Origin: a virus
Lineage: Duplodnaviria; Caudoviricetes
Virus record (IMG/VR): IMGVR_UViG_3300014205_000181
Coordinates: 64,001-128,000 of that record
DNA: 64,000 bases
Strand: one strand, 5' to 3'
A program made the position numbers and the translations under genes. Of the stretch, positions 18,957 through 63,568 are shown piece by piece; positions within the stretch are counted from its first letter, which is position 1; each line of letters begins with the position of its first letter. Under the pieces are notes generated by a model. It had not been told where the DNA came from. It ran no database searches and was given only the letters and a program-made list of their open reading frames with translations.

Positions 18957-19874
18957 TTATTTTACCTCCAATGTAGATTTAATAATATCTTGAACAGATT
19001 GTCTTATTTCATTTTTAAGTATAAAATTATTAAGATTATCAACAAAGCTAAATTCCTTTGCTCCTGAATCAGCACTTAAAATATCTATGTACTCTTTAAT
19101 TTGTTCTGAAGTTTCTTTTTTATCTTTATTTTTTAGGACTTCTTCGAGGTTGAACGAAATTGAAGAGTGTTCACAAGGTATTTCAAATAACTCATAGGTT
19201 TTAGTATCTGTATCAAATACAGCAATTTTAGGGATGTAATCTATTTGGGATATATTCAATCTAGTTAGAGACCCCATATTCAATAACGTTTTGCCATTAT
19301 ACTCGTGAACGAAGTATTTATGATTGTCCGCACTTAGAATTACGTCAAACTTGTTCTTAGACAATAATACACGAGCTGTAATATGTCCAGTCTGTCCGCA
19401 CCAAATTTTTTCGTCTTCGTCCCGAATAACCATTTTATGAATTACCAAGATATTAAATTTATTTTTATCTATAATCTCAGGGATTGTATCTCCCCAATGG
19501 CACCCATAAATATCCACATTTTCATAAGAAGAAGGGATTGCCTCTAACAGTTTAATTACGTCTGCTGATTCTACCACCTTTATAGGTGTATTAACTAAAC
19601 TCCTATCTAAATGTCTTTGATCATGGTTCCCACTTACAGCTAAAATATTTAATTTTGATTTTTTGAATAAATTAATGGTGTCACTGATAAGCCAGTTGCT
19701 TGCCCTGACAGAATCAAACAAATCTCCTGCTTGTAACATTAAGTCACATTTTTTTTCTACACCTAATTTTAAACACCATTCTAATTTCTTGAATTGGGTT
19801 TCTCTATAATTATCGATTCTAAATCTACTTCCAGAATCGCGCAGATGGATATCAGAGATCATCAATATTTTCAT
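18957..19874 (-). CDS. SbcD/Mre11 metallophosphoesterase nuclease
   Basis: 'SDIH', 'AGDLFD', 'GNHD', 'ADNH', 'NMGSLTR'. Confidence 0.9.
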   Translation of the reverse strand: MKILMISDIHLRDSGSRFRIDNYRETQFKKLEWCLKLGVEKKCDLMLQAGDLFDSVRASNWLISDTINLFKKSKLNILAVSGNHDQRHLDRSLVNTPIKVVESADVIKLLEAIPSSYENVDIYGCHWGDTIPEIIDKNKFNILVIHKMVIRDEDEKIWCGQTGHITARVLLSKNKFDVILSADNHKYFVHEYNGKTLLNMGSLTRLNISQIDYIPKIAVFDTDTKTYELFEIPCEHSSISFNLEEVLKNKDKKETSEQIKEYIDILSADSGAKEFSFVDNLNNFILKNEIRQSVQDIIKSTLEVK

Positions 19875-21013
19875 TTAATTATTTCCTTTATCGCATACCT
19901 TATAAGCCAACTTCCCAGAGCCACATATTCCGTTATGCCCGTCACTAAAAGACAGTCTCTGCAAAAGATAATGCCATTTTCAGGATCAAGGGCAAAGAAT
20001 GGCTCAGTTTTCTTCGGGTCGATATGATGCGCGGCTAAATTCTCTATTGACTGACATTTAGTACAGAAATTGTACCCGTATTCTTGGAATTGACGGAAGA
20101 AAACTTCATCAGACCAGATACTTAATTCATGTTTAGAAGGGGTATTGTCATCTATTTCACCCCTTATTCGCGTTTTCCTTGCTCTATACAAAGGGCATAA
20201 AGTTTTACATTTATCAGAACAATAAAAATTATTTTCAATGGCAGCAAGATCATCCTCAACCGCTTTTATTCTATTCCATAATTGGTCTGTAGTCGGTTTA
20301 AACCATTCGCTACAATACTTACACTGGACTAAAATCCCATACCCATTCGGATCGTCCATAATTTCTTCTATTCGGCAGAAAAATGGATACTTTTCTTCGT
20401 AATCTTTCTTGCGATAAGTATGGGATTCCTTAATCCTTTCTTTAGCGTAACACCCACAAGAATTAGTTATTCCTCTTTTTAGGCTGCTTAATCTATATCC
20501 CTTGATATTGCCATTGCAAGAACATCTTCCTAAAACAATTCTTCTCCGTCCATTAGTATCTAAATCAGAAACAACAGTTATTCTCCCATATATTTTGCCA
20601 ACGGCATTCTCTCGCCTATTTTTTAACTTCTCTATTTGATAACACCCACATGATGTTGTGTGCCCGCTTTTTAATTGGTATAAATTGTAGTCCTTGATAT
20701 TGCCATTGCAAGAGCATTTACCAATAATTCTTCTACAGTCATTCTTCCCCTTTGGATATTCTGAAATAATGGTCACTCTACCATATACACGCCCAATAAC
20801 ATCTTCCATCCTACTCAATATTTCTATTTTTAAACAGCCACAAGATTTAGATGTCTCATTTTTTAACCCACTTAGAATAACGTCCCTCCTTGTTTTCTTT
20901 TCACACGAACATTCGCAAAGAAAGTATCGTCTCCATTTCTTTTTCTCGACTTCTTTAATAACTGTCCATCTTCCGAATTTATTTCCCGGCTTGATTTCTA
21001 ATTTTCTTCCCAT
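19871..21013 (-). CDS. HNH endonuclease with SCGC repeats; frameshifted near the C-terminus
   Basis: Three 'G..[FY]GR.T...CSC...SCGC' repeats and 'CTKC...AAHHI...ENG...CRDC'. A one-base deletion is inferred at 19950/19951. Confidence 0.75.
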   Translation of the reverse strand: MGRKLEIKPGNKFGRWTVIKEVEKKKWRRYFLCECSCEKKTRRDVILSGLKNETSKSCGCLKIEILSRMEDVIGRVYGRVTIISEYPKGKNDCRRIIGKCSCNGNIKDYNLYQLKSGHTTSCGCYQIEKLKNRRENAVGKIYGRITVVSDLDTNGRRRIVLGRCSCNGNIKGYRLSSLKRGITNSCGCYAKERIKESHTYRKKDYEEKYPFFCRIEEIMDDPNGYGILVQCKYCSEWFKPTTDQLWNRIKAVEDDLAAIENNFYCSDKCKTLCPLYRARKTRIRGEIDDNTPSKHELSIWSDEVFFRQFQEYGYNFCTKCQSIENLAAHHIDPKKTEPFFALDPENGIIFCRDCLLVTGITEYVALGSWLIRYAIKEIIK

Positions 21014-58681: not shown

Positions 58682-59068
58682 TCAATCTTTTTGCATTTCT
58701 CGGTAATCTTCCAATAGCCCACTCATATTCTCTTCTATATTGATGCAAAATCCAAGTGCTTCCAGATTTAAGTAAATTTCTCCACATTTTTCACACATAA
58801 ACCACGGAGATATTTTAACCTCTGTGTATCCGAACTTATCTTCTTCAAATTCCGTAGGCCCGCGCCACCTATTAAACCGCAAAGATAGATCATTTACTTT
58901 AATTTTCGCTCCGCATGAACAACACTTTCTTGATTTTTTAGTATTTAAAGGAAAGAAGTATTCCATTTCTGGCGGAACATTACCATATCCTTCGGTAAGC
59001 ACTTTCTCGGCTAGGATGTAAAACCACCCATCTCCTTCCCACTCTGCGCAATAACATGACAAGCTCAT
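58682..59068 (-). CDS. Cys-rich hypothetical protein
   Basis: 'CCSCG', 'CEKCG'. Confidence 0.6.
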   Translation of the reverse strand: MSLSCYCAEWEGDGWFYILAEKVLTEGYGNVPPEMEYFFPLNTKKSRKCCSCGAKIKVNDLSLRFNRWRGPTEFEEDKFGYTEVKISPWFMCEKCGEIYLNLEALGFCINIEENMSGLLEDYREMQKD

Positions 59069-59349
59069 ATTTTATTCTCCAATTCGTCAGCTTGTTTTCT
59101 AAGATACGTTGCCTTTGCTGAATTAAATTCTTTTTCTGTTTCATAGGTGTTTAAGGTTTTATCACAATTCTTACATGATAAACACCAGATATACTTAGGT
59201 GTCCAATCCGAATAATGCGAAAAGCAAGAGGAGAACTCAACTTCTCCGTGCTGACATTTCATTTGCTTTAGTTCTTTTTCAATATAAAGAACACGATCAA
59301 CTAAAGATGTTATTACTGCCGCTTCTTTCTTAGATAAGTACATAAACAT
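59065..59349 (-). CDS. Hypothetical protein
   Basis: ORF track. Confidence 0.55.
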   Translation of the reverse strand: MFMYLSKKEAAVITSLVDRVLYIEKELKQMKCQHGEVEFSSCFSHYSDWTPKYIWCLSCKNCDKTLNTYETEKEFNSAKATYLRKQADELENKI

Positions 59350-60064: not shown

Positions 60065-60529
60065 TTAGTTGATTTGTTTGCGGTTAATAAAATTTGAATA
60101 AGTACCGAAATTATTTTTTAAATCATTAAGCATCGTTTCGTCATTCAGCCCTTTTTCTTTAAAAACGTACTCAACATATTCGTGGTCGTATAATTTCTTT
60201 CTACGTTTATTTACTTCTTTAATTTTTTCGAACACAATATCTCTATCAATACCATAAGTTTCTAGAAGATATTTTGCTATTCCCGGATAAGAAATTTCTT
60301 TAAATTGGCAAATCGGGCATGAAGATTCAGAGTAGCAAGAATCTCCCCACCCGTTTTCCGATTGGTCTTCATTCAATAAATGCTCATCGCAAATCACATG
60401 GCCGTTGACACATTCAGCGAATCCTAAATCCTCTGGACTTGCATCCCAACCTGATTCAGTTGCACTACAAATTTCACAGACAAAAGAACTTGAACTTGAG
60501 TTGCTTACAAAATAGTTCCTGGATTTCAT
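60065..60529 (-). CDS. 'SNSSSSS'-leader protein 3 (Cys/His-rich body)
   Basis: Begins MKSRNYFVSNSSSSSF; contains CEIC, CVNGH..C..H and CPIC. Confidence 0.85.
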   Translation of the reverse strand: MKSRNYFVSNSSSSSFVCEICSATESGWDASPEDLGFAECVNGHVICDEHLLNEDQSENGWGDSCYSESSCPICQFKEISYPGIAKYLLETYGIDRDIVFEKIKEVNKRRKKLYDHEYVEYVFKEKGLNDETMLNDLKNNFGTYSNFINRKQIN

Positions 60530-60531
60530 AA

Positions 60532-60897
60532 TTAATAACCTCCCTCACTTTCGATAACAACCATATCACTTGAACCGATATTGTTTAATCCATTCTTGCA
60601 TAGAAAGCTTTCTACCCCACCTTCTTTACTGCTGAACGAACCCATTAGAATTACCTTTCCTCCTTGAATAGCAGCCTTGGCCTGATTATATCTATCATCT
60701 TCTAACATCTCTTCGGCACTATAACAATATCCTTCCACAAAATAACGTGCTAATTCTTCAACCGTTTTAATTGTATCCCTTGAATATGTCCGCAAATCAA
60801 CCTCAATTTCCAATTTAACCTTTGGATTGTCTCCGTTTACTGCTACGATAAATGAAGAACTTGAACTGTTACTGACGAAAAAGTTTCTCGATTTCAT
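60532..60897 (-). CDS. 'SNSSSSS'-leader protein 2
   Basis: Begins MKSRNFFVSNSSSSSF. Confidence 0.85.
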   Translation of the reverse strand: MKSRNFFVSNSSSSSFIVAVNGDNPKVKLEIEVDLRTYSRDTIKTVEELARYFVEGYCYSAEEMLEDDRYNQAKAAIQGGKVILMGSFSSKEGGVESFLCKNGLNNIGSSDMVVIESEGGY

Positions 60898-60912
60898 ATT
60901 AATATCCTTTAA

Positions 60913-61518
60913 TTAATGGTGACTGAATTGTCTATAAGTAAAATATTTTTCCCAATTGAAATCATGTTCAATTTCACGCCCTAATTCTGTATCGTCTCCG
61001 AACTCACCTACCATGAAAAGTTTATATTCTTTAAATTCAGAAATAAATTCATCTACTATTTTAACGAACCTAACTCTTACTTCTGGAAGGTCGAACCATT
61101 CTTTTTCTACCTTATATTTCGCACTATAATCGTCTTGTTTAATTTTTCTTTTCGTTATTTCATTATCGGCCCACTGTTTCATAGGAGTTGGCCTTGAAGA
61201 GTAAAAGAAACCATTCCCAGAACCATATTCTTCTGAATAATAAAAATTACTAGCCAATTCTGATAAAACATTATCTTCATCGTATCCGCTGATTTCTTCC
61301 CATGGTTTATTTTCTGCTGATTCTTTTAATTTTTCTAAATCTAATGGGAATTCTTTTAGTCCCTCAAATATTCCACGCAAAACCGAAATACTTACAGAAT
61401 CTTGTTTATCGCCAAACCAAACATCTGCCGCTTCTTCTGGAGTTTCAGGAATTTTGTTTACTCCGATGATAAAGCTTGAAGAACTTGAATTACTTACGAA
61501 AAAGTTTCTTGACTTCAT
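60913..61518 (-). CDS. 'SNSSSSS'-leader protein 1
   Basis: Begins MKSRNFFVSNSSSSSF; AGGAG RBS. Confidence 0.85.
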   Translation of the reverse strand: MKSRNFFVSNSSSSSFIIGVNKIPETPEEAADVWFGDKQDSVSISVLRGIFEGLKEFPLDLEKLKESAENKPWEEISGYDEDNVLSELASNFYYSEEYGSGNGFFYSSRPTPMKQWADNEITKRKIKQDDYSAKYKVEKEWFDLPEVRVRFVKIVDEFISEFKEYKLFMVGEFGDDTELGREIEHDFNWEKYFTYRQFSHH

Positions 61519-61533
61519 TTAAATCTCCTTTAA

Positions 61534-62562
61534 TTACACATCAAAATATGGGCAAGACCTATTATTGCCTTGAATTTTATTTCGCTCAATACAAGTTGAT
61601 TTCTTAAACCATAAATCCTCCAAGAAATTATTTACACCTGCCATGTCAATCCCATCCGTTTCTTTATTTGAAAAAGAACAAGGATGAAATACACCATTTA
61701 CATCGATATAAGAGCTAAAAGATGCACTTTCGCAAGGCTCAATAGACTGTTCAAAATGTTTCAAAATACCCCAATCTCTAAACATATCCATCAATTTATT
61801 TGCACCACAAGAATCACAGCCATATCTTATGTCATTGAATAAACAGTACTTGACAATATGGCTAAATTTTTCAGTACTCAGTTTGTGGTAATTAGTCCCA
61901 CGACCTTTCTGTTTTAGAGAAAGAAAAACAATCGCATTTAATTTCTCAAGTCTTGGATCACTCTTTATATCTCTGAGTGTTTCTAGCGTTTGTCTATAAG
62001 TTTCTTCGCTGATGAGCATATGCACATTTATTTGGGTCATACCTTTATCAGTCAATCGTTTAACGGCATTGTAACAAATATTTTTATCCGCATAGCGAGA
62101 AACCGCAACTGCTCCACACAGAGAAGAAAGTTTATCTACAATATCGTCCGTCAATCTATCGCCGTTTATTGTGACATTAGGGATAATTGTATTTTCTCTA
62201 CAGTATTCCATCATCTTCCATAATTCGTCTGAGACATCTACATCGCCAATTCCAAATGCCGTTTGCGTAAGTAGGTGAATGTTGTTATATTTAGGAAATT
62301 TATCAATAATACTCTTGAAAGTATCAAATAACATGTGTTTTCCGTTAGATGTATTGGACTTATAACAGTGCTGGCAGCCAAAACTACAAATGCTAGATGC
62401 CTCTAAATCGAGAATAAAAGGCCCATACGGAGAATATTCGGGATCGATGCTTTTTTTCTCTCCCCATACTTTTGTATTTCCATTTTCCATATTAAAATCA
62501 TAATTAACATCCGAACTTCTAAAAAACTTTTTATTTTTTTCTATAATAATAGTCGGCTTCAT
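61534..62562 (-). CDS. Radical SAM enzyme with Twitch/SPASM-like C-terminus
   Basis: 'CSFGCQHCY', 'NVTING', C-terminal 'PCES..FSSYID..G..HPCSF...CPYF'. Confidence 0.9.
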   Translation of the reverse strand: MKPTIIIEKNKKFFRSSDVNYDFNMENGNTKVWGEKKSIDPEYSPYGPFILDLEASSICSFGCQHCYKSNTSNGKHMLFDTFKSIIDKFPKYNNIHLLTQTAFGIGDVDVSDELWKMMEYCRENTIIPNVTINGDRLTDDIVDKLSSLCGAVAVSRYADKNICYNAVKRLTDKGMTQINVHMLISEETYRQTLETLRDIKSDPRLEKLNAIVFLSLKQKGRGTNYHKLSTEKFSHIVKYCLFNDIRYGCDSCGANKLMDMFRDWGILKHFEQSIEPCESASFSSYIDVNGVFHPCSFSNKETDGIDMAGVNNFLEDLWFKKSTCIERNKIQGNNRSCPYFDV

Positions 62563-63479
62563 ATAAGCACCATCCCTTTGTATTTAAGGTTTTATTTTTA
62601 TATCTTTCATGAATAATTTTAGGGTCAAACACTTTATTTACATATCTTTTTAGAGAGGTATAAGATAAACCATTTTCTTTACAAAACCTTTTCACTTCTC
62701 CCTTAACCTTTATTATATCTCCGCTTGGCGAAACAAATACCCATTCTTTCGCATTTGGGTTTTTGAAACCTTGGGTATTATTCCTACAAATCTCTTTTAG
62801 CCTTTTAGATTTCTCCTGTCCGTGCAATTCATCAAATTTTCTATGATCGCCATAACGAGGATTCCCACTACCCTTCAACCTATCCTTGCGCCTTTTCTTA
62901 CCTTCTTCCGAATTATACCCAGAAGTAGGATCTTTACACCTCAATTTATTTGCTTCTCCTATTTTTTTGATATATTGATTTGTTTCTATCGGAATCATCG
63001 TATATCCGGTTGGGACCATTCTTCTGTAAATTTGTTAATGGTCCTTTTTTATCTTTTAGCGTCCCAATTTCATTAATTAGTTTAGCCTCTATCTCATATG
63101 CTCTATATTCACTTAAATTTGTTTTTAACTTAACTATCTTGGGAGTAAGGCCGTCATTAAGGATAGATCTGATTTTATTGTCTTTTATAAAATTTTTATT
63201 TTGTTTTAAATTTGATTCATGAAGATGTTTTTATACCTGTAACCCTTACCTTTCCCAACATAAAAAATTTCTGGAGGATCTTTTCTAGGATCTAAATAAG
63301 CGTAAACATAAGACTCTCCCATATCGCTAGGAATAATCATCGTATTGTTACCATAATAAAATCTAAAAATCATTTTTATCTTTTCCCCATCTATCAAATT
63401 TTCCCGTAACCATATTAAAATCGTAATTGTAATCTTCTGACCTGAATTGTTTTACATTTCTATTAATTTCAAGTTTCAT
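62531..63479 (-). pseudogene. GIY-YIG homing endonuclease fused to a duplicated radical SAM N-terminus, broken by three homopolymer frameshifts
   Basis: 'YVYAYLDPR...FYVGKG..YR', 'AYEIE..LI', 'PLTN' and 'GNPRYG' lie in successive frames. Shifts at 63365-63369, 63228-63232 and 62962-62968. Confidence 0.75.
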
Positions 63480-63568
63480 TTTGTTCTCCATAGTAAATTG
63501 TATAATTAATTTAACCCCCGTATTCAACACCCACAACTTACTAAACTACACCCAATAAGTCAAGATAA

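Follow-up and report, generated by a model that had tools for sequence, protein, structure and literature searches.

A radical-SAM enzyme and a shared N-terminal tag in large phages: a probable protein-modification system

Why do three adjacent phage genes, coding for proteins of 201, 121 and 154 aa, begin with nearly the same 16 residues, and why do they follow the gene of a radical S-adenosylmethionine (SAM) enzyme? The question is raised by positions 60065-62562 of the DNA presented here, a window of 64,000 nucleotides (the whole stretch analysed; positions 64,001 to 128,000 of IMG/VR record IMGVR_UViG_3300014205_000181). According to the listing of open reading frames (ORFs), this segment holds four tightly packed genes on the minus strand, the radical-SAM gene first and three tagged genes behind it (Table 1). 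The 16 residues common to all three small proteins, MKSRN[FY]FVSNSSSSSF, are called the tag hereafter, and the remainder of each protein its body, or cargo. Enzyme and tag probably form an unrecognised protein-modification system, as we found no description of the tag or of its pairing with the enzyme in the literature. Our preferred reading, to which we give a probability of about 0.6, is that a twitch-type radical-SAM enzyme acts as a protein maturase, with the tag as both its docking handle and its substrate site, one enzyme serving many cargos.

Conservation of the tag and its pairing with the enzyme

A first-pass annotation of the window had described three consecutive genes with a near-identical N-terminus, encoded by different synonymous codons and lying 15 nt downstream of a radical-SAM gene, and our analysis confirms each of these points. 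The distance from the stop codon of the enzyme gene to the first tagged gene is 15 nt, the following intergenic gaps are 15 nt and 2 nt, and a Shine-Dalgarno sequence precedes each of the four genes. The 48-nt stretches encoding the window tags differ from each other by 14-18 nt and, per pair, their codons show 9-10 synonymous and 0-1 non-synonymous differences, together with 2-4 switches between the TCN and AGY classes of serine codons. Such synonymous differences behind a near-identical peptide show that tag identity is held at the protein level, instead of reflecting a recent DNA copy: it is the peptide that selection maintains. Throughout the 3.7-Mb assembly into which the source contig was binned, a hidden Markov model (HMM) of the tag detects these three ORFs and no others, and tblastn detects a single enzyme gene. 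Across 596 Gb of prokaryotic genomes, only 82 exact copies of the 10-mer FVSNSSSSSF are found.

The first-pass annotation had proposed a co-occurrence check with a tag HMM. Performed in both directions, it shows enzyme and tag near-always together, co-oriented and with no third partner. Starting from an enzyme profile, a tagged ORF was found within 10 kb in 69 of the 80 IMG/VR loci; once enzymes with more than 90% identity are collapsed, 61 of the 67 non-redundant loci carry 1-13 tagged genes within that distance. All tags at these loci are located on the strand of the enzyme, the nearest one at a median distance of 476 nt and downstream of the enzyme in 46 (of 61) loci. Conversely, 22 IMG/VR loci were found via the family of the 121-aa protein, almost all with 2-9 tandem tagged ORFs, and the enzyme is present on 17 of these contigs: within 10 kb for 15 of them and elsewhere on the contig for the two others, both of which have terminal repeats. 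Tagged genes commonly occurring without the enzyme, an outcome that the annotation had listed against its own proposal, are not what we observe, as the five enzyme-less contigs are all fragments (16-51% complete according to CheckV for three of them, the other two being 12.7-kb and 49-kb contigs). An independent scan of GTDB provided a 135-kb contig with 11 tags and the enzyme, and a 43-kb contig with six tags and the enzyme. Klebsiella phage Matisse and Vibrio phage D479 carry two and five tagged genes, respectively, all annotated as hypothetical and located 2-20 kb from the enzyme, none being directly beside it; in Matisse the enzyme is gp164, and gp113 and gp118 are tagged. When the 4,253 ORFs of ~100 loci were clustered, only the enzyme, present at 96 loci, and the tagged proteins, present at 91, were conserved; the next family occurs at 10 loci at most, and no third gene family is conserved around the pair.

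The annotation had also proposed a phage system, and the pair is indeed widespread in phages, although a sister pair exists in bacterial chromosomes and plasmids (see below). Atlas clusters of the enzyme are 83-100% viral, the enzyme forms at least 5,217 clusters at 90% identity, and a profile dominated by the tag is matched, at E up to 0.001, by 27,290 representatives of 50% identity clusters. Among 50,697 phage records, a megablast search with the locus and a tblastn search with the 154-aa protein returned no match, and the 121-aa protein gave one weak match.

These pairing data bear on the possibility that the tag acts as a signal for sorting or stability (for capsid targeting as in T4, for secretion, or as a degron) and that the enzyme has nothing to do with reading it. 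Such a signal would suit a tag placed exactly at the N-terminus, and the internal proteins of T4 are likewise unrelated cargos, encoded in tandem behind a shared N-terminal peptide of ~10 residues. It leaves unexplained, however, a near-obligate and co-oriented pairing with one enzyme family. Moreover, no consistent L/I-x-E protease site is found behind the tag in the three window proteins, the tag is devoid of a hydrophobic signal-peptide core, and it is also present on single chromosomal or plasmid-borne bacterial proteins beside the sister enzyme, in non-phage contexts. The T4-like alternative considered in the first-pass annotation has thus lost most of its appeal, and we regard signals of this kind as very improbable.

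Alignment of 400 tagged ORFs provides the consensus M-K-[IVT]-R-x-G-F-V-S-N-S-S-S-[ST]-S-F-[IVL]-[IV], in which N10, S11, S12 and S15 never vary. In 386 of these ORFs, the first residue of the protein is also that of the tag (the motif itself begins at residue 7). Tagged proteins are small (median length of 129 aa) and acidic: their median isoelectric point (pI) is 4.5, and 88% of them have a pI below 5.5, versus 33% of the other small ORFs at the same loci. A tag on a large protein was encountered once in our search, as a 367-aa match constituting weak evidence. Within a genome, tag variants are shared across unrelated bodies (S3, N5 and [FY]6 in the window; T6 in all eight tags of another locus, L104), and such concerted variation fits one common reader per genome. 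Some database proteins (P0013, P0014, P0019 and P0021) consist of two tagged modules in one ORF, the second tag being internal (...EYKMKQRNGFVSNSSSSSF...); these are either natural fusions or the result of read-through or recoded stops in gene calls.

The bodies fall into 101 BLAST clusters, and the window proteins belong to three of the four largest. Profile comparison with hhalign, performed after tag trimming on the 21 clusters that comprise three members or more, relates few cluster pairs. The absence of similarity behind the tag, as noted at first, thus holds for the 154-aa family, which has no profile match with the two others, but not entirely for the 121-aa and 201-aa families, which show a weak and local match (probability 35-38%). 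No Pfam family was found on any of 89 cargo representatives, and Pfam, PHROGs and NCBIfam provide no family for the three window proteins.

The 201-aa family (cluster 3, 25 loci) ends with ...EYSDNxG...LEHG...ISHH-COOH, with invariant D175, E184 and last residue H201. Its AlphaFold2 model has a predicted local distance difference test score (pLDDT) of 71, falling below 50 for residues 1-10; strand 14-20, the first core strand according to DSSP, pairs with residues 167-173 and 195-199, and Foldseek returned no convincing fold match in the PDB. The 121-aa family (cluster 0, 30 loci) ends with ...GSFSSExG...E..LC..G...IESEGGY-COOH, and the bodies of its homologues have drifted to 40-60% identity while the tag is invariant. 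Its model (pLDDT 88) is again of low confidence at residues 1-10; the region behind residue 10 is confident (pLDDT 80-94), DSSP assigns no strand before residue 39, and a VIA-wide fold search found no convincing match (best Z 4.8). Low confidence over the first ten residues is as expected for a free handle. The 154-aa family (cluster 1, 27 loci) is zinc-finger-like, with invariant C18, C40, H44, C71, P72 and C74 right behind the tag and a weak match of the window protein to zf-RING_5 (E 5e-4, below cut-off).

These models and profiles also permit us to consider that all tagged proteins might belong to one fast-evolving superfamily, in which the motif would be a structural or ligand-binding element and the link with the enzyme indirect (for example, if the proteins bound a small-molecule product of the enzyme). 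The first core strand of the 201-aa model overlaps the end of the tag, the weak match between the 121-aa and 201-aa families involves a second motif (GSFSSExG..E vs EYSDNxG..LEHG), similar strand-plus-acidic-loop motifs are seen by eye in several other clusters, and a loose criterion joins the tagged ORFs into a single BLAST component. By contrast, most family pairs lack profile similarity once the tag is trimmed, the zinc-finger family is clearly different, residues 1-10 lie outside the modelled fold, some bacterial tags precede a membrane-helix-like stretch and bodies of 470-730 aa, and co-folding (see below) puts the tag, and not the body, on the enzyme. A common superfamily therefore appears improbable to us.

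The enzyme and its predicted docking of the tag

The window enzyme is a member of the radical SAM superfamily. The motif C59-x3-C63-x2-C66 is invariant in an alignment of 37 homologues, and PF04055 is matched just below its cut-off (E 1.4e-6, 29.0 vs 29.5 bits), the bacterial sister enzyme reaching 51.2 bits. The protein also matches phrog_7293 (E 2.9e-75), a family whose function is not known. A conserved N-terminal segment (residues ~12-45: ...G28...W33-G34...D40-P41) precedes the barrel. The Atlas model of the enzyme has a pTM of 0.89, and its nearest neighbours are radical-SAM clusters.

The Twitch/SPASM-like cysteine tail recognized in the first-pass annotation is borne out by the alignment of homologues, in which C252, C277 and C295 are invariant and C337 is nearly so. 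The canonical seven-cysteine SPASM pattern (CX9-15GX4C ... CX2CX5CX3C ... C) is absent, as there are only four further conserved cysteines, and neither CX2CX5CX3C nor a PF13186 (SPASM) match at E up to 0.1 was detected on the window enzyme. PF13186 scores 19.5 bits on a relative (cut-off 21.5) and weakly matches 26-65% of the Atlas enzyme cluster members. In the PDB, the best real profile match is the twitch enzyme SkfB (E 0.014), matches to pentatricopeptide repeat proteins having been discarded as a repeat artefact. A twitch-type enzyme with one auxiliary cluster appears to be the most economical description of the sequence, and the four C-terminal cysteines would be enough to ligate one cluster fully. 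A 57-aa ORF immediately upstream of the enzyme gene repeats the N-terminus of the enzyme. It is followed by a gene for a GIY-YIG homing endonuclease that looks decayed, because its reading frame shifts at least twice (Table 1).

Prediction of an enzyme-peptide complex, also proposed at first, was conducted by co-folding the enzyme with the 121-aa protein, from alignments of 37 and 38 rows, respectively, in three runs and with three controls. The median of the interface score ipSAE is 0.62 (0.12, 0.63 and 0.62 in the individual runs), versus 0.00 for the best control; the ipSAE mark is reached by 58 of 80 solved complexes versus 2 of 110 mismatched pairs. At least 73% of contacts agree from one run to another, and partner pLDDT is at least 67. 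On the partner side, the confident interface of the model is limited to tag residues 1-11, which are placed in the enzyme barrel. On the enzyme side, it comprises residues 27-33, 37-38, 40, 50, 52, 100, 102, 127, 129-131, 150-153, 177, 179, 181, 209-214, 250 and 272-275, which include most of the family-invariant residues. In the model, the first six tag residues are paired with residues 27-33 and 40 of the enzyme, and F7 touches G28, Q100 and N129. The modelled docking resembles what a substrate handle should look like. Searches of PDB sequences found no solved complex similar to the enzyme-tag pair. Tag position 6 might covary with enzyme residues 29-32, but this pattern, suggestive in the window (NTKV with F/Y6), is inconsistent across loci and was considered with no phylogenetic correction; it is not used here.

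The mechanism that we propose involves two parts: a twitch-type radical-SAM enzyme, and small acidic proteins with a strictly N-terminal handle of 16 residues. Tag residues 1-6 would dock as an added beta-strand on the N-terminal segment of the enzyme (residues 27-40), and docking would bring F7-S11 inside the barrel, above the site of SAM and of the [4Fe-4S] cluster. There, the 5'-deoxyadenosyl radical would take a hydrogen from a residue of the N10-S11-S12-S13 core, and the putative auxiliary cluster (C252, C277, C295 and C337) would complete the reaction. As for the chemistry, our guess is that a serine side chain undergoes a two-electron oxidation of the kind known from BtrN and anaerobic sulfatase maturases. 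It is our first choice because the N-S-S-S core is invariant and a single auxiliary cluster is expected; a cross-link between Phe and Ser or Asn, or an epimerisation, would be alternatives. In this way, one enzyme might mature many proteins (three here, and up to 13 in other phages). Regarding the initial proposal that the tag is a site of recognition and modification, recognition on interchangeable cargo is thus backed by genomic pairing, co-orientation, the lack of a third conserved gene and co-folding, while modification is probable and its analogy with the oxidation of serine to formylglycine a guess. The tag would be a detachable leader in part: residues 1-10 look free in the models, but the chain from S13-F16 onward is modelled with the cargo.

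One may ask if docking could occur without modification, the tag tethering adaptor or regulatory bodies that would bring other substrates, such as host proteins, nucleic acid or a metabolite, to the enzyme or switch it on and off. Pairing statistics and co-folding show association and not chemistry, and the bodies are diverse and acidic, as in sets of adaptors or mimics. Furthermore, in the KpAvs2 defence operon, which encodes a possible counterpart of the present pair, the radical-SAM protein is needed against some phages only, and it is the small accessory protein that binds the sensor (PMC11564622). Yet the modelled tag fills the barrel interior against family-invariant residues, where it would block any other substrate, and a pure tether would not require N-S-S-S to be invariant and always equally far from the N-terminus. 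We hence consider docking without modification unlikely.

Several observations weigh against a maturase that acts on the tag. At six of the 67 non-redundant loci, no tag lies within 10 kb of the enzyme, and the tagged genes of Slopekvirus are ~20 kb away from the enzyme. The complex was modelled without SAM or clusters, with one run out of three scoring 0.12 and with our own alignments, which are outside the calibration. In addition, the invariant residues S12-F16 lie outside the confident interface and, as the tag is modelled as part of the cargo from about S13, its conservation could be partly structural. The enzyme is distant from every characterised radical-SAM family: its best NCBIfam matches cover the cluster-binding core alone, with scores far below cut-offs, so that the chemistry cannot be carried over by homology. 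Finally, the present evidence covers association and modelled docking, from which we infer catalysis, or a mass change, on the tag.

Bacterial sister pair, possible roles and genomic surroundings

An enzyme profile run over 400 genomes of one phylum detects a full-length sister enzyme in ten of them (E 1e-53 to 1e-65). Eight sister-enzyme loci were fetched, and all eight have exactly one adjoining ORF matching the tag HMM, which starts with MKI[RK].[DG][FY][VI]TNSSS..F. The bacterial tagged N-termini are MKIRQDFVTNSSSTSF, MKIRCDFVTNSSSASF and similar ones, and on an Agrobacterium plasmid MKIKLDFVSNSSSTSF adjoins the sister enzyme. The homology of a small bacterial partner with the window 121-aa family extends beyond the tag (hhalign probability 97.8%, E 1.1e-12, 98 columns). 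Other partners reach 477-730 aa and show the tag followed by a hydrophobic, membrane-helix-like stretch (L140:9138-10571, L144:6070-8262 and L139:6670-8205); their bodies are long and coiled-coil-like or repetitive, unlike the small acidic phage cargos.

In two of the eight bacterial loci, both from Bacillota, the pair belongs to a five-gene operon encoding a metallo-beta-lactamase (MBL) protein, a trypsin-STAND protein, a protein of 133-140 aa, the tagged protein (132-138 aa) and the enzyme. The MBL protein is Avs1a/LmuA-like (E 4e-77 to 6.5e-78) and the trypsin-STAND protein Avs2-like (E 4.7e-24). The remaining loci have unrelated neighbours, such as ABC-transporter genes. On the Agrobacterium plasmid pAt2 (L145:3539-6190), the pair adjoins a gene for an 883-aa 'SMEK domain-containing' protein, with an integrase nearby, which may represent another defence-island-like context. 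Radical-SAM matches from E. coli and Salmonella plasmids (25.6% identity) were set aside, as the E. coli locus that we fetched has no tag neighbour, and the Ophion radical-SAM defence system is unrelated.

The Avs2 operon of Klebsiella pneumoniae contains a radical-SAM gene, Avap1, and a small DUF6375-like gene, Avap2 (Bechon et al. 2024, PMC11564622). Avap2 binds KpAvs2, and Avap1 is needed against T2 but not against SECphi18; no viperin-type nucleotide was found for this operon, and the substrate of Avap1 and the accessory roles were left unexplained (PMC11564622). As in the sister pair, a radical-SAM protein and a small protein are thus encoded beside an Avs2-type STAND sensor, a likeness of gene arrangement alone, whereas the phages have many tagged proteins and no STAND gene. 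HMMER found no match to PF19902 (DUF6375) on the tagged proteins, the assignment in PMC11564622 having used HHpred.

A function in phage-host conflict is suggested by the small acidic bodies, by the location of the genes among early and replication genes, and by the sister pair in defence operons; the tagged proteins probably act there as effectors that are expressed early in infection. Beyond this, we tentatively envisage a widespread conflict system in which a covalent change of the tag (for example, conversion of Ser to formylglycine, or a cross-link between Phe and Ser or Asn) would arm, stabilise or activate hypervariable small acidic effectors, bacteria using the same pair as an accessory of NLR-like sensors of the Avs2 type. 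Under this scenario, the sister pair possibly corresponds to Avap1/Avap2, and the phage copies may act on that module or mimic it.

If the preferred maturase reading is true, thousands of 'hypothetical' early genes of large phages belong to one system, in which a 16-residue handle is read by one enzyme. It would add protein-level radical-SAM modification to phage biology, provide a portable tag-enzyme pair for protein engineering, and might account for the need of a radical-SAM accessory in some Avs2 defence operons, a point left open by PMC11564622. Because its carriers include culturable phages of Klebsiella, Enterobacter, Cronobacter and Escherichia, the system is testable.

The source of the window is a 144.5-kb phage contig with 35% G+C. 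Elsewhere in the window are genes for a J-like central tail fibre, ribonucleotide reductase, DNA polymerase, ligase, NAMPT, a DnaB-like helicase and an SbcC-like nuclease. Downstream of the module, small cysteine-rich ORFs without the tag look like typical zinc-ribbon early phage proteins. The ORF of the ribonucleotide reductase large subunit combines a reductase match with an endonuclease-like match, a combination suggestive of an intein or of a homing endonuclease inserted into the gene. An ORF for an HNH endonuclease is also present, and a transposase gene lies on the plus strand within a long run of minus-strand phage genes.

Table 1. Positions of the four-gene module and of other features in the window
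Feature	Positions	Strand	Characteristics
Radical-SAM enzyme, 342 aa	61534-62562	minus	CxxxCxxC C59/C63/C66; PF04055; phrog_7293
Tagged protein 1, 201 aa, pI 4.7	60913-61518; tag coded by 61471-61518	minus	starts MKSRNFFVSNSSSSSF
Tagged protein 2, 121 aa, pI 4.8	60532-60897; tag coded by 60850-60897	minus	starts MKSRNFFVSNSSSSSF
Tagged protein 3, 154 aa, pI 4.8	60065-60529; tag coded by 60482-60529	minus	starts MKSRNYFVSNSSSSSF
57-aa ORF upstream of enzyme gene	63363-63536	minus	repeats enzyme N-terminus (FRSEDYNYDFNM..G....WGK)
Stretch with 57-aa ORF and GIY-YIG endonuclease gene	62531-63536	minus	at least two frame shifts (near 63206 and 63019)
Small Cys-rich ORFs, 64-128 aa	56034-57564 and 58682-59349	minus	CxxC...CxxC
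Ribonucleotide reductase large-subunit ORF, 1085 aa	8413-11670	minus	reductase match, residues 10-381; endonuclease-like match, residues 508-626
Transposase, 362 aa	48998-50086	plus	phrog_506, E 6.7e-128
HNH endonuclease ORF	19871-21013		

Comparison with known systems

The internal proteins of T4 resemble the tagged proteins in being unrelated small proteins of a large lytic phage, encoded in tandem and sharing a short N-terminal peptide. The present system differs from T4 capsid targeting by its radical-SAM partner, by the lack of a conserved prohead-protease site, and by the occurrence of the tag in bacterial chromosomes. A glycyl-radical/activase pair (R-V-x-G-[FYW] loop) was also considered and ruled out, since G6 is replaced by F/Y in the window tags, by T in all eight L104 tags and by D in most of the bacterial tags observed.

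Three-residue cyclophane enzymes cross-link triplets of the aromatic-x-Ser type in variable precursors. FxSxx-COOH/FxsB and triceptide systems are accordingly alike in the F7-V8-S9 triplet of the tag and in the variability of their precursors. The motif is here N-terminal, instead of C-terminal, and N10-S13 are more invariant than the Phe triplet; no FxsB or FxsC model of NCBIfam matches the enzyme at E up to 0.1.

Anaerobic sulfatase-maturating enzymes (anSMEs; AtsB and anSMEcpe) and BtrN are similarly radical-SAM enzymes with auxiliary clusters. The former oxidise a Ser or Cys side chain on whole proteins, and BtrN oxidises an alcohol using one auxiliary cluster. An invariant run of serines and a candidate single four-Cys auxiliary site make chemistry of the anSME or BtrN kind plausible by analogy. 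The enzyme itself is not recognized as an anSME, as no such model is among its NCBIfam matches at E up to 0.1; the tag does not contain the (C/S)-x-(P/A)-x-R motif, and there is no sulfatase domain in the 89 cargo representatives.

The last comparison is with SPASM/twitch maturases of ribosomally synthesised and post-translationally modified peptides (RiPPs), such as SkfB, SuiB, CteB, PqqE and MftC. The enzyme matches no curated maturase family of NCBIfam at cut-off, and the surroundings of the pair at ~100 loci show no conserved RiPP recognition element domain, protease or exporter. The likeness lies in one enzyme encoded beside several substrates with shared recognition (following the one-enzyme-many-substrates logic of prochlorosins), in a C-terminal Cys-rich auxiliary-cluster domain, and in beta-strand docking with insertion of the adjacent residues into the barrel, as predicted here. 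The difference lies in the substrates, which are here proteins of 80-290 aa with predicted folds, instead of short peptides, and with a conserved part that starts at residue 1 and would serve both as handle and as presumed target.

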